A stretch of 12,370 nt of DNA from Promethearchaeota archaeon (GTDB lineage: Archaea; Asgardarchaeota; Hermodarchaeia; Hermodarchaeales; Hermodarchaeaceae). Position numbers and translations under genes: made by a program. Where the stretch lies: contig JBHLMI010000045.1 of NCBI GenBank assembly GCA_048938295.1, positions 1-12,370 of the forward strand, read 5' to 3'. Shown here piece after piece: positions 1 through 12,370 of the stretch (position 1 is the stretch's first letter; every line of letters begins with the position of its first letter). The notes beneath the pieces are model-generated. The model had not been told where the DNA came from and made no database searches. It was given only the letters and a program-made list of their open reading frames with translations.

Positions 1-342
1 CTGGAACCAGTGCACAACCTGTCAAAGGATAAGGTCTTTGATCAGCGGCTAGCGAAGGCTCGAAGGATCTTTGCTGCTTTATCCAAGCAAAAACCCACCG
101 CCCAAGACCTAATGCCCCTCGTTGAATATTTCCATGGCATCGAAATACAGGTAGGGGCTCTGCGCTGCCCTAAGTGCCATAGGTGGTTTCCAATTGGATC
201 ACGAGTGGAGACAATTCCTGAATTATTACCGGACGCTGGACGGGATAAAAACGCGGATGTGGCGTTTCTCCGGAAGTATCGTGACGTGCTTCCTGACGCG
301 ATTTTAACTGGCTCTAAACCCTTCGTTTTGGAAGAAGCCTAG
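1..342 (+). CDS. Trm112-like protein (methyltransferase activator family), 5'-truncated by the window edge
   Basis: Frame is open from base 1 (CTG GAA CCA GTG), so the GTG at 10 is probably internal. C-terminal half pattern EIQVGALRCPKCHRWFPI...IPELLPD...D..FL.K...LP..IL...KP matches archaeal Trm112-type proteins. Stop TAG at 340-342. Confidence 0.7.
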   Translation: MEPVHNLSKDKVFDQRLAKARRIFAALSKQKPTAQDLMPLVEYFHGIEIQVGALRCPKCHRWFPIGSRVETIPELLPDAGRDKNADVAFLRKYRDVLPDAILTGSKPFVLEEA

Positions 343-356
343 TTGAGAGTACAGAT

Positions 357-369
357 TAGCAGAATCCTT
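357..369 (+). repeat. 13-bp direct repeat, left copy (TAGCAGAATCCTT)
   Basis: Exact match to 1656-1668, read directly. Followed by GGG at 370-372. Confidence 0.97.
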
Positions 370-373
370 GGGC

Positions 374-381
374 TTTTTATG
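374..381 (+). promoter_or_regulatory. TATA-like box (TTTTTATG) upstream of tnpB; could also be an oligo-T terminator for the Trm112-like gene
   Basis: Centred about 26 nt upstream of the GTG at 403, the spacing expected for a leaderless archaeal transcript. No Shine-Dalgarno before 403 and the adjacent BRE position is non-consensus. Confidence 0.35.
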
Positions 382-402
382 TCCACTTGTTGACGAAAAG
401 TT

Positions 403-1641
403 GTGAAAGCTGGAAGTAAGTCACTAATTATCTATCGTGGATATAAGACGGAGTTGAAATTAAATAATCACCAGAGAAACCTTTGTAGAAGACACGCGGG
501 ATTTGCTAGGTTTGCTTATAATTGGGGTTTACAAAGGAAGATTGAGGAATATGAAAAAACTGGAAGCTCTCCCACTGCATTTACTTTGAGTAGGGAACTG
601 AACAGGCTTAAGCTTTCTGAATTTTCTTGGATGTATGAACTGTCAAGTCGTGTTCCCCAAGAAGCATTCAAAAATCTGGATTTCGCGTTCAACCAATTCT
701 TTCGTCGTATAAAAAAGGGTAAAAAACTAGGATTCCCAAAATTCAAAGCACGCAAATGTGGACTCGGATCCTTCCGGTTAAACGGAGTAATCCGTGTGTC
801 TGAAAATGTTATCCAATTGCCCCGACTTGGTAGGCTTCGGTTAAAAGAAAGAGGCTATTTACCCTCCGAGTCAAATCGGATACATATTCTTTCAGCAACC
901 GTCTCGGAGAAAGCAGGTCGTTGGTTTGTTTCCCTACAAGTTCGAGAAGAGATTTCTCCAGAACAAAGCAGTGGTCCAGTAGTTGGTGTTGATGTTGGGC
1001 TCCGCCATTTAGCAGTACTTTCTGATGGCACCTTCTTCGATAATCCAAAGGCATTGAGTCAGAAGGAACGGAAATTGAAGCAGGTACAAAGAAAGCTTGC
1101 AAAGAAGCTGCGTGGAAGTAATAATTATCAGAAGCTAAAACTCAAACTACAAAGAATCCATAAAAAAATTGCAAACATTCGAAAAGATGCTATTCACAAA
1201 ATAACAACCCGACTGGTGAAAACCAAATCAGTCATAGTTATTGAGGGACTTAATATTCGCGGACTAACGAAAAATCATTCAATAGCAAAGGCAGTTTCAG
1301 ATGCGAGTTTCCAAGAGTTTCGACGCCAACTCGAATATAAAACGGTCTGGTATGGATCTAATCTGATTATTGTGCCTTGGTCTTTTCCATCGTCAAAGCG
1401 ATGTTCCAAATGTGGAAAAATCAAGAAAGAGTTACCTCTATCTTCACGGATTTACGAATGCAAGTATTGTGGATTAACTATGGATCGTGATTTGAATGCT
1501 AGTAAAAACCTAGCATTAGTCGCCGCCAGTTGGTCGGAGACAATAAACGCTTGTCTAGAGGTGGGAGGTTACAGATCCATTGGATCAGTGCCCATCAATG
1601 ATGCAAGAACCGAACACCAATCAAAAAACTTGAAAGGGTAA
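403..1641 (+). CDS. tnpB: RNA-guided endonuclease TnpB (IS607-like), 412 aa
   Basis: N-terminal YKTELKLNNHQR...HAGFARFAYNWGL, PKFK motif, RuvC-I VGVDVG, RuvC-II VIVIEGL, zinc finger CSKC...CKYC, RuvC-III DRDLNASKNL. All three acidic catalytic residues present, no frameshift. Confidence 0.95.
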   Translation: MKAGSKSLIIYRGYKTELKLNNHQRNLCRRHAGFARFAYNWGLQRKIEEYEKTGSSPTAFTLSRELNRLKLSEFSWMYELSSRVPQEAFKNLDFAFNQFFRRIKKGKKLGFPKFKARKCGLGSFRLNGVIRVSENVIQLPRLGRLRLKERGYLPSESNRIHILSATVSEKAGRWFVSLQVREEISPEQSSGPVVGVDVGLRHLAVLSDGTFFDNPKALSQKERKLKQVQRKLAKKLRGSNNYQKLKLKLQRIHKKIANIRKDAIHKITTRLVKTKSVIVIEGLNIRGLTKNHSIAKAVSDASFQEFRRQLEYKTVWYGSNLIIVPWSFPSSKRCSKCGKIKKELPLSSRIYECKYCGLTMDRDLNASKNLALVAASWSETINACLEVGGYRSIGSVPINDARTEHQSKNLKG

Positions 1642-1671
1642 GATTCGGGCAACGGTAGCAGAATCCTTTTA
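1495..1671 (+). ncRNA. Predicted TnpB omegaRNA/reRNA: scaffold to 1655 plus guide from 1656
   Basis: Established: TnpB guide RNAs derive from the element's right end plus 3' flank and overlap the end of tnpB. Seen stems: 1495-1502/1510-1517 (8 bp), 1574-1578/1582-1586, 1561-1565/1591-1595, 1610-1614/1644-1648. The 5' and 3' limits are approximate. Confidence 0.7.
1656..1668 (+). repeat. 13-bp direct repeat, right copy (TAGCAGAATCCTT)
   Basis: Starts at the first base after CAACGG and is identical to 357-369. Confidence 0.97.
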
Positions 1672-1674
1672 TAG
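1659..1674 (+). promoter_or_regulatory. Archaeal BRE + TATA promoter (CAGAATCC TTTTATAG) for the r-protein operon
   Basis: Purine-rich AGAA directly upstream of TTTTATAG, the only good TATA box before rpl22. Predicts a start near 1696-1697, coinciding with the 5' end of the leader stem. Confidence 0.65.
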
Positions 1675-1695
1675 TGTTGGGGGTTTGACTTCCTC

Positions 1696-1804
1696 GCTCT
1701 CACATTGTTTGGGAGTGCGGATCAGCGCCGAGGGTTCTTGGAATTCTCGTTCTTGCTGCTGCAACCTGCAAAGTGAGTGTTTTCAATCCCAGAGATGATA
1801 CCCT
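1696..1804 (+). promoter_or_regulatory. Putative structured 5' leader of rpl22 (candidate r-leader)
   Basis: Hand-folded: closing stem 1696-1708/1768-1780 with two mismatches, arms 1715-1718/1725-1728, 1729-1737/1741-1749 (9 bp) and 1753-1756/1761-1764. Confidence 0.45.
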
Positions 1805-2266
1805 ATGCCCAACTACGGCTATTCGATCATTGGTCTGGATCCCGATAAAACCGCCCGGGCTAGCGGACGCGAGGTTCACATGTCTCCCAAGGCTGCTCGA
1901 GAAATCTGTAATGAGCTACGGGGACTCCGCCTTGAAGCCGCCAAAACCTACTTGGAAGAGGTCATCGCCATGCGCCAGGCGGTGCCTTACCGTCGGCACG
2001 ACGGACAAGTGGGGCATCGCAAGGGACTGCGTAAGGCTGATTCTGGACGGTACCCTGTGAAAGCATCCAAAGAGATCCTGCGTGTGATAGCCAACGCCGA
2101 GAATAACGCCGATTACAAAGGCTTAGATCTGGATCGGCTGCGAGTCACGCATATCTCAGCGTATCCGGGTCGGGTCAATAAACGCTTCGTACAACGGGCG
2201 CGGGGACGGTCAACTAAGTATAATGAGCAATTAGTCCATGTTGAGGTCGTCTTAACGGAGGAATAA
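1805..2266 (+). CDS. rpl22: 50S ribosomal protein L22 (uL22), archaeal type
   Basis: SPKAAREIC...GL.LE.A..YLEEV....AVPYRRH...VGHRKG...GRYPVKA; RARGR motif. Confidence 0.97.
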   Translation: MPNYGYSIIGLDPDKTARASGREVHMSPKAAREICNELRGLRLEAAKTYLEEVIAMRQAVPYRRHDGQVGHRKGLRKADSGRYPVKASKEILRVIANAENNADYKGLDLDRLRVTHISAYPGRVNKRFVQRARGRSTKYNEQLVHVEVVLTEE

Positions 2267-2268
2267 TC

Positions 2269-3495
2269 ATGCCAGCTGAAGATCATTTCATTAATCGAGG
2301 ACTGTTGAAAGTTAAAGTGAACGATTTTCTTCGCCAGGAGCTTCGACGTGCGGGTTATGCTGGCGTAGACCTTCAGAAAACTCCGCTCGGGATGCGAGTC
2401 GTCGTCTATGCTGCACGTCCTGGAATGGTTATTGGTCGACGTGGGATAACGGTTCGGGAGCTCACAGAAACTCTTGAACACGATTTTGGTCTTGAAGCAC
2501 CGCAAATCGAAGTCAATGAGGTGGAGGTCCCCGAACTCAACGGACCCATAATGGCAGAACGGTTAGCCCAACGCCTTGAGCGGGGTGATCATTTCCGTCG
2601 TGCGGCCTACGGTGTTCTTCGTCGTATCATTCAGACAGGGGCAAAGGGTGTCGAAATCTCCCTCGCTGGCAAGCTTACCAGCCGTCGTGCCCGGTATCAG
2701 AAATTCCGCAGCGGCTTCGTGGCCAAGACTGGTGAACCGATACGAACTGCGGTGAGTCATGGGTGGGCTTATGCTGTAATGAAACCGGGAGTCTTAGGAG
2801 TTCAAGTCCGCATCATGCTACCGGATACTGTTGCTCCGGATCATCCTGTTATCGTCCATCGGGAAGTGGAAGTTCAAGCAGTTCCTCCTCCTATCCCCAA
2901 AGCCGCAGAAATCGAAATCATCGAAGAAGAACTCCCCTTAGAAGAAGCTCCCTCAATCGAAGAGTTTGTGGAAGAAGATATGGAACCGGCTCCTGAATCG
3001 GTCGAGCCAAAAACCCCTGTGACCCCTGAGGGCGAACCAACCTCTAAGGCCTCCCCTGAACCTGCTCCAGAAGCCCCACCCGCCGAAGAAAAACCTGCAC
3101 CCGAAAAACCAAAGCCTAAACTCAAGGAAGAACCCAAAGCTGAACCTCCCAAGAAAAAGGCACCTGAAACGCCCAAGGAAAAACCGAAGCCAAAGAAAGA
3201 AGTAGCCAAGGAGAAACCAAAGGCTAAGAAGGAAACGGCAAAGCCGAAACCTAAAGCCAAGCCCAAAACCGAACCGAAACCCAAGGCAAAGGCTAAGACT
3301 GAGCCTAAGAAGAAGGTGGAGGAGAAACCAAAGGCTAAGGCGAAGCCAAAGGCAGCTAAAGCTGAAGAAAAACCCAAGGCCAAAGTGGCAAAGAAGCCGA
3401 AGACGGAGAAACCTACTGAGAAGGAAAAGAAGACGAAACCCAAAGCGGCAAAGGAGAAGGCTTCGAAATCCAAGAAGGAGTCCTCAAAGAAGTGA
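2269..3495 (+). CDS. rps3: 30S ribosomal protein S3 (uS3) with ~210-aa low-complexity C-terminal extension
   Basis: KH domain ARPGMVIGRRG and C-domain HFRRAAY...GAKGVEI..AGKL...RAR within aa 1-~197, followed by acidic then Lys/Pro/Ala-rich tail. Confidence 0.97.
   Translation: MPAEDHFINRGLLKVKVNDFLRQELRRAGYAGVDLQKTPLGMRVVVYAARPGMVIGRRGITVRELTETLEHDFGLEAPQIEVNEVEVPELNGPIMAERLAQRLERGDHFRRAAYGVLRRIIQTGAKGVEISLAGKLTSRRARYQKFRSGFVAKTGEPIRTAVSHGWAYAVMKPGVLGVQVRIMLPDTVAPDHPVIVHREVEVQAVPPPIPKAAEIEIIEEELPLEEAPSIEEFVEEDMEPAPESVEPKTPVTPEGEPTSKASPEPAPEAPPAEEKPAPEKPKPKLKEEPKAEPPKKKAPETPKEKPKPKKEVAKEKPKAKKETAKPKPKAKPKTEPKPKAKAKTEPKKKVEEKPKAKAKPKAAKAEEKPKAKVAKKPKTEKPTEKEKKTKPKAAKEKASKSKKESSKK
3209..3339 (+). 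repeat. 20-nt exact in-frame direct repeat in the rps3 tail (AGGAGAAACCAAAGGCTAAG at 3209-3228 and 3320-3339)
   Basis: Read directly. Copies are 111 nt (37 codons) apart and both encode EKPKAK. Confidence 0.9.
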
Positions 3496-3515
3496 GATGA
3501 GGAGGTAAAGGGCAA

Positions 3516-3749
3516 ATGCCATTACTGAAAATGAATGAAATCCGGAATATGACTCCTGTTGAACGGGAACGGAAGCTCGATGAACTCCGGGCTGAACTGG
3601 CAAAACAACGGGCTGCAATGATGTCTGGTGCAGGAATGGAAAATCCCGGAGTCATCCGTGGAATTCGTAAAAACATCGCTCGGATTCTAACCGTGAATAC
3701 TGAAGAGGCACGGAGGATTGCTGAAGAAAGCTTGGAGGCGGGTGAGTAG
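3516..3749 (+). CDS. rpl29: 50S ribosomal protein L29 (uL29)
   Basis: LKMNEIRNMT..ER..KL.EL..EL...R...ENPG.IR.IRK.IARILT; SD GAGGAGGT at 3499-3506. Confidence 0.96.
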   Translation: MPLLKMNEIRNMTPVERERKLDELRAELAKQRAAMMSGAGMENPGVIRGIRKNIARILTVNTEEARRIAEESLEAGE

Positions 3750-3751
3750 CT

Positions 3752-4033
3752 ATGCAACACGCTAGCCATCTGGAACTCCACCCCCTCATTGGTCTCTTAG
3801 CCACTGTGAAGCAGGCGACCAACCCCATGCTCCGCAACATTTCCGGCGTCATTGTGGACGACACCCATAACATGCTTACACTCGCTGACGGACTTCGACA
3901 CCGTCAGATTCCGAAGACCTCTACAGTCTTCGAGCTGTCCCTGCCTAGTGGCGAGACAGCAGAAATTGACGGGACGGCTCTACTGGGCACTCCCGCAGAA
4001 CGCCTAAGGAGGGCGAAAAAACTACGATGGTAG
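3752..4033 (+). CDS. rnp1: Ribonuclease P protein component 1 (Rpp29/Pop4)
   Basis: H.LIGL....NP....ISG.IVDDT.NML...IPK...F...IDG..L.G.P.ERL pattern and conserved position between rpl29 and rps17. Confidence 0.88.
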   Translation: MQHASHLELHPLIGLLATVKQATNPMLRNISGVIVDDTHNMLTLADGLRHRQIPKTSTVFELSLPSGETAEIDGTALLGTPAERLRRAKKLRW

Positions 4034-4371
4034 CGAAAAATATCGGTCTGAAGGTCACGCCTCCCGAAGAGGAATGTAGCGATCCTAATTGTCCGTTTCA
4101 CGGTACACTACCAGTCCGTGGACGAACCATGGACGGTGTTGTGGCCAGCACCAGAATGCGCGGCACTGTTACTGTCCGCCGTGATTACTTCAAGTTCATC
4201 AAGAAATACCGTCGGTATGCACGGAGTCACTCTATGACCGCGGCCCATCATCCTCCCTGTATCCCGCTTGAAGTGGGAGACACCGTTCGAATTGCTGAGT
4301 GCCGACAAATTAGCAAAACGGTATCTTATGTCGTCGTTGAACGCATCAAATCCAAGGAGGCGACCGACTAA
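4027..4371 (+). CDS. rps17: 30S ribosomal protein S17 (uS17)
   Basis: NIGL.V.PP..EC.D.NCPFHG.L.VRG; GD.V.IAECR.ISKT. Confidence 0.97.
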   Translation: MVAKNIGLKVTPPEEECSDPNCPFHGTLPVRGRTMDGVVASTRMRGTVTVRRDYFKFIKKYRRYARSHSMTAAHHPPCIPLEVGDTVRIAECRQISKTVSYVVVERIKSKEATD

Positions 4372-4793
4372 TGGTGAAACGAGGTAAAAAGGCTGTAGGT
4401 GTTGCACGAACCAAGATTAGTCGTGGTCTACCCACAGGGGCTAGACTCACCGTTGCCGATAATAGTGGGGCCCGGATAGTCGAAATCATCTCTGTCATTG
4501 GCTGGCATGGACGACTCCGACGTCAACCGGCCGCCAGTGTGGCTGATATGGTTGTAGTCGCCTGCAAGGCTGGGACTCCCAAGATGCGTCGCCAAGTGCT
4601 CCGTGGTATCATTGTGCGACAACGCATGCCCTACCGCCGTAAAGGGGGTCAATGGATTCGCTTTGAAGATAATGCCGTCGTCATCACTTCAGAAGTAGGG
4701 GATCCACAAGGATCAGAAATCCGGGGTCCCATTGCCCGAGAAGCCGCGGAACGCTGGCCCCGTATTGCTAGTGTCGCCAGCATCATCGTTTAG
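4371..4793 (+). CDS. rpl14: 50S ribosomal protein L14 (uL14)
   Basis: ADNSGAR, FEDNAVVI, IRGPIAREAAERWPRIAS. TAATG overlap with rps17. Confidence 0.98.
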   Translation: MVKRGKKAVGVARTKISRGLPTGARLTVADNSGARIVEIISVIGWHGRLRRQPAASVADMVVVACKAGTPKMRRQVLRGIIVRQRMPYRRKGGQWIRFEDNAVVITSEVGDPQGSEIRGPIAREAAERWPRIASVASIIV

Positions 4794-4807
4794 GAGTTGA
4801 AAAGAAC

Positions 4808-5194
4808 ATGACCTCACGAAAACCCAAGAAACAGCGCAAATCGCGATATACCGCACCTTGGCATCGTCGCCACAGATATCTCACCGCTAAGCTGGCTCCT
4901 GATTTAGTGGATAAACACGGCATCAAACGACTGCCGGTCCACACTGGTGACACCGTCTATATCACTCGAGGGGCCTTCCGTGACTCCGAAGGCGATGTGA
5001 TTGAAATCGATATGAAAAAGCTCAAGCTCAGTATCGAGAACATCACAATCGAAAAAGTGGATGGCTCCGCTGAGCCTTTTCCGATACGTCCCGAAAACGT
5101 CATGATTACCAAACTGAAACTTGATAAAACCCGTCAAACGGCCATCGATCGTAAAGCTGCTGCCCGAGCCGGCTTGATAGAAAAGGAGGATTAG
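4808..5194 (+). CDS. rpl24: 50S ribosomal protein L24 (uL24)
   Basis: S.KP.KQRK..Y.AP.H.R; KOW motif LPV..GDTV.I.RG. Confidence 0.97.
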   Translation: MTSRKPKKQRKSRYTAPWHRRHRYLTAKLAPDLVDKHGIKRLPVHTGDTVYITRGAFRDSEGDVIEIDMKKLKLSIENITIEKVDGSAEPFPIRPENVMITKLKLDKTRQTAIDRKAAARAGLIEKED

Positions 5195-5198
5195 TAGT

Positions 5199-5939
5199 AT
5201 GCCCAAAGGTCCCAGAAAACATCTGAAACGATTGGCTGCCCCTGGTCACTGGCAAATTAAGCGCAAGGTTCGTCCCTTTACTATCCGCAGTAAGGCTGGT
5301 CCCCATGCTCTCCAAGAAGGAATACCATTAGGGGTTGTCCTCCGAGACATGCTCAAATTAACCACCACACTGAATGAAACACGGCGTGTCATTGCGCAAG
5401 GGCACGTGAAGGTAGACGGGCGCATACGCAAAGACTACAAATTCCCTGTTGGCTTAATGGATATCATCGAGGTGGACAAAGCCGAAACACTCGTACGCGT
5501 TGTACCTGACTCGCAACACCTCCTCCAACTTTTCAAAATCACCAAGAAAGAACAGAACCTCAAGCCATGTAAAATCACAGGTAAGAACACAGTGGCTAAA
5601 GGAAACATACAACTCCATCTTCATGATGGTCGCACCATCCAACTTCCTGTAAAAGACCCGAAGGTCAAGCCCCAAATCCCCTATAATCCCGGCGATACGC
5701 TGTTAATCAAGTTGCCTGATCAAAGCATTCAGGAACATATCCCCCTTAAGAAAGGAATCACGGTTGTCATCACCGGCGGAGATCATACGGGCAAATTAGG
5801 CAAACTCATCGAAATTGACCCTGAGAATCAACTGGGAACCATCCAGACCACAGAGGCCAAGACCATTTTGACCGCTATTCGATACGTCTTTCCTCTTGGT
5901 ATGGATTCTCCCTTGGTTTCTATTCCGGAGGCTGGCTAA
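5199..5939 (+). CDS. rps4e: 30S ribosomal protein S4e (eS4)
   Basis: GPRKHLKRLAAP, VKVDGRIRKDYKFPVGLMDII, QLHLHDGR. Confidence 0.97.
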   Translation: MPKGPRKHLKRLAAPGHWQIKRKVRPFTIRSKAGPHALQEGIPLGVVLRDMLKLTTTLNETRRVIAQGHVKVDGRIRKDYKFPVGLMDIIEVDKAETLVRVVPDSQHLLQLFKITKKEQNLKPCKITGKNTVAKGNIQLHLHDGRTIQLPVKDPKVKPQIPYNPGDTLLIKLPDQSIQEHIPLKKGITVVITGGDHTGKLGKLIEIDPENQLGTIQTTEAKTILTAIRYVFPLGMDSPLVSIPEAG

Positions 5940-5941
5940 CC

Positions 5942-6604
5942 ATGTCAACAGCAAAGAAATCCCCTCAACCGAAAACCTCACCCAAACAAACAGCCTCAGT
6001 GAAGGCTAATGATGCCGGGGCTAAGGCTAAGCCAGCAAAGCCCCTCCCGGCTCCCCAACCAAAGGCAAAGAAGGACAATGTCATGCGACACATCTTCATT
6101 TCAAAGGTAGTCGTAAATATGTCCTTGGGCACCGGGGGTGAACCCCTAGCAAAGGCTAAAACAGTTCTCGAAAATCTAACGGGGCAAAAACCAGCGGATA
6201 TCTTGGCCAAACGCACGAATCGCGACTTTGGACTCCGTCAAGGTGAACCCATGGGCTGTAAAGTGACCCTTCGTGGTGAGAAAGCCAAAGACTTTGCCAA
6301 ACGAGCTTTAGATGTCGCTGACTTCCAAATTCCGGAGAGTGCTATCGACCATTCGGGGAATGTGTCGTTCGGTATTGCTGAACACATTCAGATTCCAGGT
6401 GTCAAATACGATCCCAATCTTGGGATCTTTGGTATGGACGTTGCCATATGCACGGAACGTCCTGGATACCGAATCAATCGGCGACGCCGAGGACGCCATA
6501 GAGTTCCCCGTCGTCACCGGATTACGCCTAGTGAAGCGATGACAGTTCTTGCCACAGAGCTGGGAATCCAATTCACACGACCCGAAATGGAGGAGGAATA
6601 CTAA
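5942..6604 (+). CDS. rpl5: 50S ribosomal protein L5 (uL5) with ~44-aa Lys/Pro/Ala-rich N-terminal extension
   Basis: Core from NVMR..ISKVVVNM; GCKVTLRG; SFGI.EHI.IPGVKYDP..GIFGMDV. Confidence 0.97.
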   Translation: MSTAKKSPQPKTSPKQTASVKANDAGAKAKPAKPLPAPQPKAKKDNVMRHIFISKVVVNMSLGTGGEPLAKAKTVLENLTGQKPADILAKRTNRDFGLRQGEPMGCKVTLRGEKAKDFAKRALDVADFQIPESAIDHSGNVSFGIAEHIQIPGVKYDPNLGIFGMDVAICTERPGYRINRRRRGRHRVPRRHRITPSEAMTVLATELGIQFTRPEMEEEY

Positions 6605-6753
6605 TGTCGCAGGAGAAAAAGCAGGGCAAAGGACACCGCTCATGTAAACGATGCGGGACCCATCGTGCCATTATCCGCAGTTTTAAAATCAGCTTATGTC
6701 GGCGCTGCTTCCGAGAAGTCGCCGAGGAGCTTGGATTTCGTAAATTCAGTTAG
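6604..6753 (+). CDS. rps14: 30S ribosomal protein S14 (uS14), zinc-binding type, 49 aa; absent from the ORF track
   Basis: Hand translation: [49 protein letters not shown]. CxxC...CRRCFRE motif, TAATG overlap with rpl5, conserved position. Confidence 0.96.
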
Positions 6754-6767
6754 AGGTGGAAAAGACA

Positions 6768-7160
6768 ATGACCGTAAAGCAGCCATTGGCAGATGCTTTC
6801 TCAAGCATCATGAATCACGAGCTCCTTCGTAAATCAGAGGTACTCATCGCCCCTGCCTCGAAGAAAATCGGCGCTGCGCTCCGGATTATGCAGCGAATGG
6901 GCTATGTTGGCGAATTCGAATTTATCGACGATGGTAAGGCCGGTATGCTCCGAGTAGAGCTCCTTGGCCGTATAAATCAATGTGGTATTATTAGTCCCCA
7001 CCACGCGGTGAAACGCCACGACTTCGAAGAATGGGAGAAGCGGTTCCTGCCCTCTCGGGCATTCGGCTTCCTCATTGTGTCAACTCCCAAAGGCTTCATG
7101 ACACACCGTGAAGCCGCAGAACAAGGTCATGGAGGACGGCTCATCGCCTACGTCTACTAA
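6768..7160 (+). CDS. rps8: 30S ribosomal protein S8 (uS8)
   Basis: [33 protein letters not shown]...GG.LIAYVY. ATG 6768 preferred over GTG 6756 because GAGGTGG (6753-6759) then serves as SD and the length is 130 aa. Confidence 0.96.
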
Positions 7161-7175
7161 GCTAAGGAGCGGATT

Positions 7176-7745
7176 GTGACAATGCCAGCTAAAACTACGC
7201 ACTTCGAAAAATTAACTTCTATCTTGGAGAACACCACCGTAACCCTTGATGGAAAGCGTGTGATTGTGCAAGGACCTAAAGGAGAACTCACCCGTGACTT
7301 CAGCCACGTCGACGTAACTATTCAAAAGACCCGAAACAATATCATGGTCTCTGTCGAATATCCCCGGAGCCGACAAATCGCCCTTGTAGGCACCGTCATC
7401 TCCCATATCAGAAACATGATGCTTGGTGTCATCCACGGCGTCACATACAAGATGAAAGTGGTGTACGCCCATTTCCCTCCTAGCGTTAAAGTTGAAGGCG
7501 ATCGCCTTATCGTCGAGAACTTCTATGGCGAGAAAGCTCCCCGCCGTGCCAAAATTCTTCCTGGTGTCAACGTTAGCGTGCATGGTGACGACGTAGTTCT
7601 GGAAGGGATTGACATCGAGCTTGTTGGTCAGACAGCAGCGAATATTCAGAATTCAACTAAGCTCCGTCGGAAAGATCCACGCAAGTTCCAGGATGGGATA
7701 TACGTATACGAAAAACAACTTGGAGAACAGCATTGGAAGCTTTAA
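7176..7745 (+). CDS. rpl6: 50S ribosomal protein L6 (uL6)
   Basis: V.GPKGEL.RDF, YKMKVVYAHFP, ENF.GEK.PR, D.RKFQDGIY. Start could be GTG 7176 or ATG 7182. Confidence 0.96.
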   Translation: MTMPAKTTHFEKLTSILENTTVTLDGKRVIVQGPKGELTRDFSHVDVTIQKTRNNIMVSVEYPRSRQIALVGTVISHIRNMMLGVIHGVTYKMKVVYAHFPPSVKVEGDRLIVENFYGEKAPRRAKILPGVNVSVHGDDVVLEGIDIELVGQTAANIQNSTKLRRKDPRKFQDGIYVYEKQLGEQHWKL

Positions 7746-7766
7746 CCAACCCGGATGTGAAAGATA

Positions 7767-8213
7767 ATGAAAAAGAGTAAACGTGTCAAACAACTTCAAC
7801 GCGAACTATACAAGAAACGGCAGTTAAATCAACGAAAACCGAAGTTTCGGCGTCCGGAGAGTTGGCGGTATAAACGATTAAACGCTAGGTGGCGGCGTCC
7901 CAAGGGCATTGACACTGCCGTTCGGAAACGCGAAAAAAGCCAACCGAAAATGCCCCGCATCGGCTACCGAAGTCCGGTTAAGCTCAGGGACTACCATCCG
8001 TCTGGCATGAAAGAAGTACTCGTTCACAACCTCCAAGAAATGGAAGGGCTTCATCCTAAAATTCATGCTGTCCGAATTGCTCATCGTGTAGGTGATCGCA
8101 AACGAATGGCCATTATTGATCGAGCAGATGACCTTGGTCTTCGGGTAATCAATCCTCAACTCAAATCGGAGATACGCGATCTCCTCGACCTTGACACAGG
8201 GGAGACTAGCTAG
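7767..8213 (+). CDS. rpl32e: 50S ribosomal protein L32e (eL32)
   Basis: KPKFRRPESWRYKRL...WRRPKGID, P.IGY.SP...HPSG..EVLVHN. Confidence 0.97.
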   Translation: MKKSKRVKQLQRELYKKRQLNQRKPKFRRPESWRYKRLNARWRRPKGIDTAVRKREKSQPKMPRIGYRSPVKLRDYHPSGMKEVLVHNLQEMEGLHPKIHAVRIAHRVGDRKRMAIIDRADDLGLRVINPQLKSEIRDLLDLDTGETS

Positions 8214-8228
8214 AAGGTGAGTATAACC

Positions 8229-8678
8229 ATGAATGTTAGAGCCCAACGAAAACTTGCTGCGCGAATTCTTAAAGTCGGTGAAAATCGGGTCTGGATTGAT
8301 CCTGACCGGCTTGATGATGTATCGCTAGCCATTCGCCGCGATGATATCCGCCGGCTAATCCATGAAGGTGCTATCCGCAAGGTGCCAATTCAGGGTGTTA
8401 GCCGTGGTCGAGTAAAGGTTGTTCATCTAAAGCAGAAACGAGGCCTTCGTTCAGGGCCAGGCAGTCGCGAGGGCAAACGTACAGCGAAACTCTCAGGCAA
8501 AGAACGGTGGATGATTAGAATTCGGGCTATCCGCCGACATCTCAAACAGCTCCGAGCTCGCCGGGTCATTAAGCCCCGTGATTACCGACGCTTATACCGA
8601 CTTTCGAAAGGTGGGATGTTTCCCACTATTCGACGAGTCGACATGTATATCCAAGAAAACAAAATGAAGAGGCGATAA
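8229..8678 (+). CDS. rpl19e: 50S ribosomal protein L19e (eL19)
   Basis: QRKLAA.ILKVG.NRVWIDP, R.DIRRLI.EG.I, G.GSR.G, YR.LY...KGG.F. ATG 8229 preferred, with AAGGTGA (8214-8220) as SD. Confidence 0.96.
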   Translation: MNVRAQRKLAARILKVGENRVWIDPDRLDDVSLAIRRDDIRRLIHEGAIRKVPIQGVSRGRVKVVHLKQKRGLRSGPGSREGKRTAKLSGKERWMIRIRAIRRHLKQLRARRVIKPRDYRRLYRLSKGGMFPTIRRVDMYIQENKMKRR

Positions 8679-8681
8679 AAA

Positions 8682-9290
8682 ATGGCACACGGACCACGCT
8701 ACAAAGTACCCTTCCGTCGACGTCGTGAAAGCAAAACCGACTACCATGCACGACGCCGGATGGTAGGCTCGGGACGACCACGCCTAGTCGTACGGAAAAC
8801 CAGTACCCGCGTCATCGTCCAAATCATGGACGCCCTACCGGAAGGAGACAGATGCATCGCAGCGGCTGATTCGCGACAGTTAAGCGAATTTGGCTGGCGC
8901 GCTGGTGTAAAGAACATCCCTGCAGCGTATCTCACAGGATTCTTAGCTGCCAGCCGCGCTCTGAAACTAGGAACAAACACCGCCATTGTTGACATTGGAT
9001 TAACCCAACCAATACCTGGTTCCCGAATCTTTTCAGCTGTCAAGGGTGCCATCGACGCTGGGCTTGACGTTCCGTGCCCAGATAAGATGTATCCAAAGGA
9101 AAAACGTCTTCGAGGCGAACACATCGCTAGCTATGCCAAAGATCTCAGCGAGAACCAGTCCAAAACCTTTCAACGCCAATTCGGAATGGTGTCAAAGGGC
9201 CGAACCGATCTTACTCAGCTCCCAAGCATGTACGATACTACCAAGAAGAATATCACAGCGAAATACACTCGTGGAGGGTCGAAACAATGA
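8682..9290 (+). CDS. rpl18: 50S ribosomal protein L18 (uL18)
   Basis: [44 protein letters not shown]. Confidence 0.98.
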
Positions 9291-9955
9291 GCCGAAGGCC
9301 GCGACAACAACAGCAACGCCCACGCGGCTTCAATGTCGATGAGTGGGAACCGGTCACAAAAGTTGGCCGACAGGTGAAAGCTGGCGAAATAACCTCACTT
9401 GAAGATCTCTTTCAGTTAGCTCTCCCCATCAAGGAGCCAGAAATCATCGATGTGCTGCTGCCTGACCTTCAAGAAGAAGTCATCGACATCAATTTGGTTC
9501 AAAAACAGACAGATGCTGGTGAAAAATCTCGGTTCAAAGCCACCGTCATTGTAGGTAACGAAAACGGTTTTGTCGGCATTGGCGAATGCAAAGCGCCAGA
9601 AATTGGACCCGCCATTCGGAAAGCCATTCTTCGCGCGAAGCTCAACCTCATTTCAGTTCGCCGAGGATGTGGAAGCTGGGAATGCGGGTGCAACGATCCC
9701 CACTCCGTTCCCTTTCAAGTGAATGGCAAAACAGGAAGCGTTCGCGTGAAGCTTCTTCCTGCGCCTAAAGGCGTCGGGCTAGTTACAGCTGACACAATGA
9801 AAGTTGTCCTTAGGCTAGCTGGCATCAACGATGTATGGTCCCGAACACGTGGTCATACCCGTACGACCCTCAACTTCGCGAAGTCAGTCTTCCGTGCATT
9901 AAAAGAAACCAATCAAATCATGACCCCGCAAGATTGGACTCGGAGAGCTGAATAA
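9287..9955 (+). CDS. rps5: 30S ribosomal protein S5 (uS5)
   Basis: [50 protein letters not shown] overlap with rpl18. Confidence 0.98.
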
Positions 9956-9956
9956 C

Positions 9957-10451
9957 ATGTCAACAGAAACCCAACAAAATCATCCATTGGTGGTTGTCAT
10001 CCGCATTCGCAGCAGTATTGGCTTGCGCCAAGAAGTCAAAGAAACACTAGCCCTGTTGAGCCTTTCCCGTGTGAATCACGCCGTGGTTCTGGATAAGCGC
10101 CCAACCTATCTAGGGATGTTTCAACGGGCAAAAGATGCCATCACCTGGGGTGAACTTGACGCCCCCACTTTATCGCACCTTCTTCGAAAACGAGGTCGGC
10201 TGATTGGAGAAAAACCTGTTACCGATGAATATGTAGCAAAGCACACCAAATACAAATCCATTGATGAATACGCTAATGCTCTCGTCGCGCAGAAAGAGGA
10301 ATCACTGGCTCTTCCTAAGCTGAAGAAAGTCTTCCGTCTACACCCACCTTCGAAGGGATTTCGAGGAAGTGTGAAACGAACCCTTCAACAGAAGGGTGAA
10401 CTCGGGTATCGCGGTGAGGATATTAATGCCCTCCTCAAACGAATGTCATAA
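9957..10451 (+). CDS. rpl30: 50S ribosomal protein L30 (uL30), archaeal long form
   Basis: VIRIR, TL.LL.L.RVNH.V, ITWGE, FRLHPP.KGF, GELGYRG..IN.LL.RM. Confidence 0.97.
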   Translation: MSTETQQNHPLVVVIRIRSSIGLRQEVKETLALLSLSRVNHAVVLDKRPTYLGMFQRAKDAITWGELDAPTLSHLLRKRGRLIGEKPVTDEYVAKHTKYKSIDEYANALVAQKEESLALPKLKKVFRLHPPSKGFRGSVKRTLQQKGELGYRGEDINALLKRMS

Positions 10452-10483
10452 GAGGGAGAATATGAAAACAGGATGGATGAAAT

Positions 10484-11023
10484 ATGGCTGAAAACGATGA
10501 TCGCCGTAAACGGAAGCGCTGGTGGGATGATGAGTCCACCGATTCACAGTTCGAAGCCCTTCAACGGATGTTTGAAGAAATCATGAAAATGATTTCTGAC
10601 ATTAATCCTGAGGACATGTTTGGTCCCGACGCCGAACACCAACTTGAAGAAATCCTCGAACAGCTCCAAAAGAATCCTATGGTATGGGGCTTCTCTGCAG
10701 GAATCGGACCAGATGGTAAGATACGCTTAAACCCATTTGGTAACCTTAACCCCGAGGGTGGACCACCCGTTGTCCGCGATGAACGTGAACCACTCATTGA
10801 TGTCATGGACCAAGATGACCAGCTCATTATCATTGCAGAACTCCCAGGCGTGAAACGGAATGAAATCAACATCAAAGTGAACGATTATAGTCTAACGCTC
10901 CAGGTGGATTCAAAGGACCGAAAATATGCAAAAGACATTGATCTTCCTGCACCTGTTGATATCGACTCCGTCAAGACCAGTTATCGTAATGGCATCTTAG
11001 AAATCCATCTCAAGAAACGTTAA
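10484..11023 (+). CDS. hsp20: Small heat-shock protein, archaeal Hsp20 family
   Basis: P.VWGFS..IGPDGK....FGN, then alpha-crystallin domain REPLIDV......IIAELPGV....I...LP..VD....K..Y.NGILEI.L.K. Confidence 0.93.
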   Translation: MAENDDRRKRKRWWDDESTDSQFEALQRMFEEIMKMISDINPEDMFGPDAEHQLEEILEQLQKNPMVWGFSAGIGPDGKIRLNPFGNLNPEGGPPVVRDEREPLIDVMDQDDQLIIIAELPGVKRNEINIKVNDYSLTLQVDSKDRKYAKDIDLPAPVDIDSVKTSYRNGILEIHLKKR

Positions 11024-11044
11024 CCTCATAGGAGAGACACAATC

Positions 11045-11725
11045 ATGTCAACACGAAAACCTAAAAAAGTCCGTAAAATGCGTGGGAGCCGGATGCACGG
11101 TTATGGACGAATAGGTCAGCATCGCAAAGCTGGCCAACGCGGTGGCAAAGGCAAAACCGGTGGAAAGAAACACGATTGGACCTATGTAACTGCACATGAC
11201 CCAGACCGCTTCGGCAAACATGGCTTCCAACGTTATACCAAACTCCGTCAAGATCACACCACCATTAATGTGGGCGAGATTGCTCGTAGCCTTCCTCGAT
11301 TCACCGAAGGAAAACCTGCAGCTAAAGGTGAACCCATTTCTATTGATCTGACCACACACGGTTACGATAAAGTGCTTGGAGCCGGATCAATAACGGTTCC
11401 CGTAGCCGTTACTGCTCCAATTTTCACTCACCGAGCAGCCGAGAAAATTAAAGCCGCTGGAGGGAAAATCAAAGGTTCTGTTCAAGAACCCACGAAGCAT
11501 CCTGCCCCTTCTTTAACTCAACCCCCTAAACCTGCACCAAAGCCGACGCCCAAGGCAAAAGTGGAACCGAAAACTAAGCCAAAGAAAGCAGCGAAACCAA
11601 AGAAAATAGCCAAATCGAAGAAGGCAACTAAGTCAAAAACTACGACCAAGTCCACACCGAAGGCCGCTTCCACTAAGGCAAAACCCAAACGAGCGGTAGT
11701 TACAAAAGGAAAAGCGAAGACCTGA
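11045..11725 (+). CDS. rpl15: 50S ribosomal protein L15 (uL15) with ~83-aa Lys-rich C-terminal extension
   Basis: RKMRGSR.HG.G..GQHR..G.RGG.G..G..KH, FGK.GF, GYDKVLGAG, A.EKI..AGG. Tail is aa 144-226. Confidence 0.97.
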   Translation: MSTRKPKKVRKMRGSRMHGYGRIGQHRKAGQRGGKGKTGGKKHDWTYVTAHDPDRFGKHGFQRYTKLRQDHTTINVGEIARSLPRFTEGKPAAKGEPISIDLTTHGYDKVLGAGSITVPVAVTAPIFTHRAAEKIKAAGGKIKGSVQEPTKHPAPSLTQPPKPAPKPTPKAKVEPKTKPKKAAKPKKIAKSKKATKSKTTTKSTPKAASTKAKPKRAVVTKGKAKT

Positions 11726-11727
11726 AC

Positions 11728-11745
11728 CAAAACATAATTAAATAG
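11728..11745 (+). promoter_or_regulatory. Putative internal BRE/TATA promoter for secY (CAAAAC ATAATTAAATAG)
   Basis: TTAAATA at 11738-11744 preceded by an A-rich tract, in the longest intergenic gap of the operon (87 nt). Confidence 0.45.
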
Positions 11746-11812
11746 CAAAACCTTCCGCTGTTCATCTTCGATACGAATTATTTGTAAAAACAATGCTTTT
11801 GGGGCAAACGGC

Positions 11813-12370
11813 ATGAGTCGGTTTCTCAACGCACTGCGTCCATTGGTTCGCATCATGCCAGAGATCAAGGCACCTGACCGGAAGGTCTCGTTCCGCGAAA
11901 AAATCATCTGGACCGCGGTCATCCTCATCTTATACCTCATAATGGCCAGCTTGCCCCTCTATGGCATCAACCAACAATTAGGATTTGACTACTTTTTCTG
12001 GCTTCGCACCATCCTTGCCTCTTCGCGAGGTACTCTCATGGAACTTGGCATCGGTCCCATCGTGACCGCTGGCCTCATCATGCAGCTCCTCGTGGGCTCC
12101 CAACTTATCCGCGTTGACATGTCGGACCCCTATCAGCGGTCGCTCTATACCGGGGCCCAAAAAGTCCTTGCTGTCTTCATGACTGCATTCCAAGCCTTCG
12201 CTTACATCTTCGCCGGTGCTTACGGACAGATCCCTGCGCAACTGCCCATTGGCAGCGCTGTCTTGGTTTTCATCCAATTGATGTTTGCTGGCGTTGTGGT
12301 CATCATGATGGACGAAACCATCCAGAAAGGTTGGGGCCTCGGCAGTGGGGTCAGCCTCTTCATCATGGCC
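11813..12370 (+). CDS. secY: Preprotein translocase subunit SecY (Sec61-alpha type), 3'-truncated by the window edge; absent from the ORF track
   Basis: Hand translation: MSRFLNALRPLVRIMPEIKAPDRKVSFREKIIWT...ASSRGTLMELGIGPIVTAGLIMQLL...DE.IQKGWGLGSGVSLFIMA, 186 codons without a stop. Confidence 0.97.
   Translation, partial: MSRFLNALRPLVRIMPEIKAPDRKVSFREKIIWTAVILILYLIMASLPLYGINQQLGFDYFFWLRTILASSRGTLMELGIGPIVTAGLIMQLLVGSQLIRVDMSDPYQRSLYTGAQKVLAVFMTAFQAFAYIFAGAYGQIPAQLPIGSAVLVFIQLMFAGVVVIMMDETIQKGWGLGSGVSLFIMA

Follow-up and report, generated by a model that had tools for sequence, protein, structure and literature searches.

Why does the small-subunit protein uS3 of a Hermodarchaeaceae archaeon carry a C-terminal tail that doubles its length, and why is this tail acidic in its first part and Lys-rich in its second? 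The question arises from the rps3 gene in a 12,370-nucleotide (nt) stretch of DNA from a promethearchaeon (GenBank contig JBHLMI010000045.1, positions 1 to 12,370; hereafter, the window), which is contig 15 of a 2.5-Mb genome (G000) that is 92% complete. Here, we propose that the tail is a disordered appendage of two layers, in which the Lys-rich block would serve as an electrostatic tether for RNA and the acidic block as a spacer, and we give this reading a probability of roughly 0.5. The evidence concerns the identity of the folded core, the reality and conservation of the tail, the origin of its two blocks, and the occurrence of similar tails on other proteins of the same genome.

The N-terminal half of the protein is an archaeal/eukaryotic-type uS3. 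The NCBIfam model PRK04191 matched amino acids (aa) 1–202 with 269 bits (cut-off 147), and TIGR01008 matched aa 4–195 with 251 bits (cut-off 150.25). The Pfam domains PF07650 (KH_2, aa 16–88) and PF00189 (Ribosomal_S3_C, aa 99–182) follow each other in this order. These equivalog scores and the domain order agree with the slot of the gene in its operon and with its single copy, as only one match was found in the whole genome. In the AlphaFold2 model, which was calculated with a 37-sequence alignment, the core has predicted local distance difference test (pLDDT) values of 80–93, and its last strand ends at aa 183. The top genuine relatives in the Protein Data Bank (PDB) were uS3 chains of archaeal 30S subunits, such as 6skf and 6sw9. 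The top whole-protein match in the PDB, 9p8h_SD (454 aa), was rejected as a tailed uS3 because it contains the eukaryotic 40S S3 core twice in one chain.

The tail comprises 208 residues, 20% of which are Pro, and is predicted to be intrinsically disordered along its entire length. In the same AlphaFold2 model, aa 190–408 are all coil with pLDDT values of 41–57. No Pfam matches were obtained for the tail or for either of its blocks, even at E ≤ 10, and a Protein Atlas search with the tail gave no usable match. A PDB search with the tail found no genuine relative; it gave only a weak, low-complexity similarity to a Lys-rich stretch in mammalian eL29 (E = 0.016), which was not accepted as homology. 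A first-pass annotation of the window had described an acidic block followed by a basic one, and its residue counts were exact (21 Asp/Glu and 2 Lys in aa 214–274; 56 Lys and no Arg in the 134 residues of aa 275–408). The likeness to histone H1 tails that it had pointed out also holds for the composition, with Lys far exceeding Arg and accompanied by Pro and Ala. The informative measure of charge segregation was the sequence charge decoration, which was −11.5 for the tail versus +3.5 ± 1.2 in 500 shuffled sequences, a deviation of ~12 standard deviations. The parameter kappa was weakly above the shuffles (0.20 versus 0.15 ± 0.03); this short-range measure is raised only modestly because Glu residues are interspersed in the basic block.

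The tail is present in the DNA of the organism and not only in one assembly. The reading frame is open for all 408 codons, and two independent metagenome contigs (6.4 and 11 kb) cover the entire gene. Relative to the window, they show three substitutions and an in-frame insertion of 6 nt. In a third run, from a separate study, a contig has another in-frame 6-nt insertion at nearly the same place. In the basic block, 63% of the Lys codons are AAG compared with 40% in the remaining genes of the window (Fisher p = 0.003), and A-runs reach a length of 5 at most. Both features fit an avoidance of slippery poly-A tracks. Since the rate of synonymous substitution (dS) was saturated in most ortholog pairs, the ratio of nonsynonymous to synonymous rates (dN/dS) was taken from the five close pairs that were unsaturated. 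It was 0.02–0.03 in the core, 0.18–0.42 in the acidic block, and 0.05–0.18 in the basic block. Neutral evolution would not yield the signal of purifying selection seen in the tail. Judged from this evolutionary signal, the tail is probably translated, and it is selectively maintained across the genus.

Conservation was examined in eleven genomes of the genus (ten with a complete orthologue, one with an orthologue truncated at a contig end) and in 36 complete database proteins. The reading frames of all complete genus orthologues (355–436 aa) are uninterrupted, and the proteins share the acid-then-base layout, with 38–72 Lys and 0–1 Arg in their tails. The first-pass annotation had asked whether orthologues share the tail and its charge pattern; the pattern was kept in every complete one, so the patternless variation that it had named as counterevidence was not seen. 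Three segments stand out within the tail: an acidic-hydrophobic motif, the acid-to-base junction, and the C-terminal end. The column identity of the motif (aa 213–236) is 74–86% compared with 21–61% in the adjacent tail among the 36 genus orthologues. Its core, E-h-E-h-h-E-E, was found in 38 of 52 proteins from the genus and the lineages nearest to it (P0001–P0052) and in one of 69 other archaeal uS3 proteins. The last 12 residues are almost gap-free across the 36 orthologues, though the lengths of the tails vary by up to 80 residues.

The two blocks differ in their distribution among other archaea. As a survey of 40 related genomes and 121 proteins from databases showed, the uS3 core of Asgard and other archaea is as a rule followed by an acidic tail of ~10 to ~140 residues; the statement in the first-pass annotation that archaeal uS3 often has a shorter acidic tail was borne out both in the related genomes and in the database proteins. 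Like that of the host, these acidic tails directly follow the S3 C-terminal domain and are Glu-rich and partly hydrophobic. Unlike it, most are 10–100 aa long and purely acidic, and only some lineages have a basic distal block. By this comparison of sequences, the acidic block is the ordinary, ancestral tail of archaeal uS3, homologous in position, and the basic distal block is lineage-specific. In the host genus, the latter is rich in Lys, Pro, and Ala and is the most lysine-rich of those found in the survey. In the sister genus (L012–L015), the basic part is a tandem array of two to three units, each ~26 aa long and with KRKRRTRK at its end. This unit is Arg-rich, in contrast to the Lys-only block of the host genus, and resembles a classical nuclear localization signal. 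Lys/Ala/Pro blocks are found again in more distant members of the close relatives (P0039–P0048). Basic ends on acidic uS3 tails also occur in Atabeyarchaeia, some Heimdall lineages, and Methanobacteriaceae, and the acid-then-base layout was seen in 18 of the 44 other long-tailed uS3 proteins in the list of protein matches. The Methanobacteriaceae tails contain two RGRP AT-hook-like motifs; in one of these proteins (P0079, 365 aa), a long acidic tail is followed by a basic end with two motifs of the KRGRPKK type. This basic end is an independent addition of a nucleic-acid-binding-type motif to an acidic uS3 tail, and, more generally, basic ends joined acidic uS3 tails independently in several lineages.

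The Lys-rich block of uS3 is not alone in its genome. All six frames of the genome were scanned for Lys-rich windows, and a strict threshold of at least 18 Lys per 60 aa was passed by eight ORFs (open reading frames). Five of them are ribosomal proteins (uS3, uL15, eL24, eL33, and eS24); the others are the RNA polymerase subunit Rpo3, a protein with a Lys/Glu-rich tail, and a probable noncoding repeat at a contig end. A lower threshold added uL5, eL13, aIF2-beta (N-terminal), Nop5 (C-terminal), an RNase PH subunit of the exosome, Rpo7, Alba, and DnaG. By their location, the tails of aIF2-beta and Nop5 resemble two eukaryotic features, since eIF2-beta has its K-boxes and Nop56/58 have their K-rich tails at the corresponding ends. 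Throughout the genus, eL24, uL15, and Rpo3 carry their tails; in the sister genus these are shorter, and they were not seen in the other Asgard genomes sampled. For uL15, the open frames are 226–291 aa in the genus versus 150–183 aa in other Asgard genomes. A blastn comparison between the tails of different genes found no shared DNA, and thus no shared module or gene conversion, which argues that the tails grew independently toward the same composition. Most other Lys-rich tails of the lineage have no acidic block. The uS3 tail is the largest of these lineage-wide polycationic tails on nucleic-acid machinery and the sole charge-segregated one, because it was added to a pre-existing acidic tail. 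The ORF of eL13, one of the proteins added by the lower threshold, also matches helix-hairpin-helix (HHH_5) domains, an unusual pairing for eL13. The coordinates of the uS3 segments, the neighboring genes, and the other Lys-rich tails are listed in the table.

Table. Coordinates of the uS3 gene and its segments, neighboring features, and other Lys-rich tails. Positions without a contig label are those of the window; C numbers denote other contigs of genome G000.
Feature	Position	Strand	Basis or remarks
uS3 gene (rps3)	2269..3495	+	408 codons and TGA stop; uninterrupted ORF; profile matches
Shine-Dalgarno sequence GGAGG	2257..2261	+	7 nt ahead of uS3 ATG; read from sequence
Folded uS3 core, aa 1–200 (KH type-2 and S3 C-terminal domain)	2269..2868	+	Pfam, NCBIfam, AlphaFold2, dN/dS
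Acidic Pro-rich block, aa 201–274	2869..3090	+	21 E, 1 D, 3 K, 17 P; net charge −19; isoelectric point (pI) 4.05
Acidic-hydrophobic motif, aa 213–236 (genus consensus approximately AEIEVIEEELPIEEAPPIEEFIEE)	2905..2976	+	Column identity
Acid-to-base junction, aa 271–290 (PPEEKPAPEKPKPK...)	3079..3138	+	Column identity 71–78%
Lys/Pro/Ala/Glu block, aa 275–408	3091..3492	+	56 K, 0 R, 20 E, 24 P, 19 A; net charge +36; pI 10.2
C-terminal end, aa 397–408 (KASKSKKESSKK)	3457..3492	+	Column identity about 80%
uL22	1805-2266	+	Upstream neighbor of uS3
uL29	3516-3749	+	Downstream neighbor; starts 20 nt past uS3 stop
uL5 N-terminal Lys/Pro/Ala extension, aa 1–45	5942..6076 (gene 5942-6604)	+	Lys-rich window; Pfam L5 domain starts at aa 46
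uL15 C-terminal Lys/Ala/Thr/Pro tail, ~75 aa (about aa 150–226)	11492..11722 (gene 11045-11725)	+	Lys scan
TnpB gene (IS200/IS605- or IS607-type RNA-guided nuclease)	403-1641		Directly upstream of uL22
HSP20/CS-domain gene	10484-11023		Between uL30 and uL15
eL24, with Lys-rich tail	C9:15577-15993		Lys scan
eL33, with Lys-rich tail	C38:20524-21054		Lys scan
eS24, with Lys-rich tail	C9:22376-22876		Lys scan
Rpo3, with Lys-rich tail	C9:6532-7515		Lys scan
eL13 (Ribosomal_L13e) ORF, L039	C1:27186-27956		Lys/Pro/Ala stretch
Lower-threshold proteins with Lys-rich tails	L035 aIF2-beta, L042 Nop5, L040 exosome RNase PH, L037 Alba, L043 Rpo7		Lys scan

These observations can be joined into a model of the tail. 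On the ribosome, the chain emerges from the C terminus of the uS3 core at the solvent side of the head of the small subunit, beside the mRNA entry channel. The appendage was probably built as two layers, an old acidic Pro-rich segment and then a polylysine/proline/alanine block, and in the Hermodarchaeota family the acidic layer would have gained the acidic-hydrophobic motif that is now conserved. The Lys block would act as a nonspecific electrostatic RNA-binding tether on the subunit head near the mRNA entry channel, where it could grip the rRNA surface, incoming mRNA, or neighboring ribosomes. The acidic Pro-rich block, repelled by rRNA, could be a spacer that keeps the Lys block off the rRNA surface, and it may also serve as a partial intramolecular counter-ion (net −19 versus +36). 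At about 0.3–0.36 nm per residue, a fully extended chain of 208 residues measures roughly 65–75 nm and can therefore reach well beyond its own ribosome. RNA binding, the spacer and counter-ion role, and the placement on the ribosome are what we infer, the last of these from established uS3 structures. A role as RNA tether is the most likely one for the Lys block because such tails are found almost exclusively on proteins that handle nucleic acids. The RNA-binding nature of the proteins that carry similar tails, the purifying selection, and the published reading of low-complexity regions with at least 30% Lys as nucleic-acid binding (PMC6821194) all argue for it.

Several points weigh against the tether model. 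RNA binding is reached by inference, and translation is read from the evolutionary pattern of the sequences. The 20 Glu residues of the basic block make it a polyampholyte, not a pure polycation, and the purifying selection may reflect a constraint on composition alone, such as solubility or the avoidance of hydrophobic residues. The lower threshold of the Lys scan also added an FKBP and an HdrA-MvhD fusion, which are not known as nucleic-acid binders, and a link to extra rRNA was not found in the partial rRNA genes available. In the main rival explanation, the tail would be a tolerated low-complexity appendage, an entropic bristle that grew by slippage or duplication at a terminus exposed to solvent and is kept soluble and nontoxic without binding anything specific. 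We regard this as rather unlikely, while acknowledging that it fits the fast sequence turnover, lengths from 355 to 436 aa inside a single genus, the plain tandem duplication by which the basic part of the sister genus arose, and the weak internal DNA repeats of the basic block and the 6-nt indel polymorphism. The same habit in many unrelated archaeal lineages (PMC6821194) points in this direction as well. An inert bristle does not explain why dN/dS is well below 1 and lower in the basic than in the acidic block, or why conservation is seen in the motif, at the junction, and at the C-terminal end. Nor does it account for the use of Lys nearly to the exclusion of Arg throughout the genus and for the concentration of the tails on nucleic-acid-handling proteins instead of across the proteome. 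An artifact, that is, an assembly or annotation error or an untranslated open 3′ region, is essentially excluded. The A-rich, low-complexity DNA does leave several frames largely free of stops, among them an antisense ORF of 213 aa, but independent contigs agree, more than 35 orthologues are open through to the conserved C-terminal motif with dN/dS far below 1, and uL29, with its own Shine-Dalgarno sequence, directly follows the uS3 stop.

The conserved motif raises another explanation, in which the tail is an autoinhibited switch or a docking module. The acidic-hydrophobic motif would bind a partner (a translation factor, a neighboring ribosomal protein, or the mRNA channel) or fold back on the Lys block, and the conditional release of the Lys block would lead to mRNA recruitment, ribosome pairing, or condensation. 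This is improbable in our estimate. In its favor, the conservation of the ~24-residue motif markedly exceeds that of its surroundings, and the motif is almost confined to the genus and the lineages nearest to it; the charges are strongly segregated; and tails of other lineages show the acid-then-base order independently. Simple accretion at the C-terminal end of an old acidic tail, however, would yield the same order, and no acidic partner block accompanies the other Lys tails of the lineage. In the AlphaFold2 model, moreover, the motif has a pLDDT of about 45, with neither structure nor docking onto the core. The first-pass annotation had suggested that the acid-then-base polymer could neutralize itself and switch to bind other partners. 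Its tail, residue counts, conserved charge pattern, and H1-like composition stand, whereas a single purpose-built acid-base switch finds no support in that form: the acidic block is ancestral, and the Lys block is one of about a dozen such tails in the lineage, mostly on proteins without an acidic block. The simplest account is therefore an old acidic tail with a polycationic add-on. An extraribosomal, histone H1-like role, in which uS3, whether free or on the ribosome, would bind DNA with its tail for nucleoid tethering, chromatin compaction, or the coupling of transcription and translation, is also doubtful, and we consider the odds to be clearly against it. Rpo3, Rpo7, and Alba of the same genome have similar tails, the composition resembles that of H1 C-terminal domains, and AT-hook-like RGRP motifs are present on the uS3 tails of Methanobacteriaceae. 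Yet the carriers are mostly RNA-binding components of the ribosome, the exosome, or small nucleolar ribonucleoproteins (snoRNPs), and the uS3 protein contains neither a winged-helix domain nor an S/TPKK run.

The tether model and its rivals have a wider meaning. No known group is more closely related to eukaryotes than the Asgard archaea, and ribosomal proteins with long disordered extensions are a hallmark of eukaryotes, in which eIF2-beta (K-box-like N terminus) and Nop56/58 (K-rich C terminus) are extended as well. In the prokaryotic lineage studied here, Lys-rich tails were gained in parallel by about a dozen parts of the ribosome, RNA polymerase, initiation factor 2, snoRNPs, and the exosome. 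If these tails bind RNA, they constitute a natural experiment on adding polycationic extensions to an RNA machine, with consequences for stability, mRNA capture, and ribosome clustering; if they do not, they show the amount of inert appendage that a core ribosomal protein tolerates. As a possible site of binding, the conserved acidic motif is a concrete and testable candidate. A bolder proposal, which we put forward as a long shot, is that this Asgard lineage, independently and in parallel with the eukaryote-type growth, covered its apparatus for translation and transcription with polylysine tails, and that the uS3 motif and Lys block together act as a regulated electrostatic switch on the side of mRNA entry that controls mRNA capture, ribosome pairing or hibernation, or condensates.

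The genomic surroundings of the gene are those of a ribosomal-protein operon. According to annotation and profile matches, an archaeal operon of the S10/spc type on the plus strand fills the window in the order uL22, uS3, uL29, RNase P p29, uS17, uL14, uL24, eS4, and uL5, followed by uS8, uL6, eL32, eL19, uL18, uS5, uL30, an HSP20-like gene, uL15, and the start of secY. The contig has no uS19 or uL2 ahead of uL22; the TnpB element is located there. The HSP20-like gene was considered as a tail-specific chaperone, and this was rejected: coordinate comparison showed that it also adjoins uL15 in several other Asgard families, including those without Lys tails. The adjacency is thus an old and widespread trait of the Asgard spc operon and not specific to the tails.

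The partial rRNA genes of the genome contain large insertions. The partial 16S rRNA gene (L033, C48:1-2667) has three of them in its 3′ third. The first, in the head domain at about model position 916, has a length of 617 nt and includes a 182-aa ORF (L033 181-729). Helix 44 has a tip ~59 nt longer than that of the model, and in helix 45 ~90 nt are inserted just before the GGATCACCTCC 3′ end (L033 about 1333-1425). The partial 23S rRNA gene (L034, C20:43359-46863) contains a group I intron (Rfam RF00028, 61 bits). A tie between the protein tails and rRNA expansion segments was considered and is unsupported, since the large insertions in both genes look like introns.

How does the host tail compare with known systems? 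In composition bias, position outside the fold, in-frame continuity, and conservation in relatives, it fits the class of low-complexity or disordered ribosomal extensions. In a survey of prokaryotic ribosomal proteins for low-complexity regions, archaeal S3, with 11 orthologues, and S24e are among the recurrent carriers (Ntountoumi et al. 2019, PMC6821194). The archaeal regions in that survey average 36 aa and are mostly made of Ala and Glu, whereas the uS3 tail of the host has 208 aa, is bipartite, and includes a conserved motif; it also belongs to a coordinated set of tails, and the 2017 data of that study do not include the Asgard lineage concerned. A literature search found no paper on the archaeal uS3 tail, on ribosomal-protein tails in Asgard archaea or Hermodarchaeota, on a bipartite uS3, or on the acidic motif, and the paper on the Methanosarcina acetivorans ribosome mentions neither uS3 nor extensions. 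The C-terminal tail of eukaryotic uS3 contacts RACK1/Asc1 on the 40S head (PMC11274626). It is likewise a C-terminal extension and has the same exit point on the subunit head, but it is about 30–40 aa long, neither acidic-then-basic nor Lys-rich, and unalignable with the host protein past about aa 200.

Two further systems resemble parts of the tail. TonB has a spacer of about 35 aa between its membrane anchor and its folded domain, which is composed of (Glu-Pro)n and then (Lys-Pro)n and is thought to be an extended rod. The junction of the host tail (PEAPPAEEKPAPEKPKPK) looks similar to this Pro-rich, acid-then-base spacer and is not homologous to it; the EP/KP-like junction (aa 262–290) is irregular, and the tail contains neither an anchor nor a TonB domain and has no Pfam match. 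The basic block has the composition of an H1 tail, being rich in Lys, Ala, and Pro with Lys far exceeding Arg, and it is predicted as coil. No linker-histone winged-helix domain was found by Pfam at E ≤ 10, and the translation contains no SPKK or TPKK run; the likeness to H1 is therefore one of composition only and not of membership. H1-like Lys-rich extensions have been described on RpS6 and RpL23a of mosquitoes and on RpL22 and RpL23a of Drosophila (PMC548281, PMC1934995). Like the host tails, they are long terminal segments of Lys, Ala, and Pro that originated independently on several proteins of one lineage. Unlike the uS3 tail, they are eukaryotic, are located on other proteins, and are not preceded by an acidic block, and any relation between the two is compositional convergence, not homology. 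With low-complexity regions on archaeal S3 and H1-like extensions in insects known before, the uS3 tail of the host is an extreme variant of a known habit.

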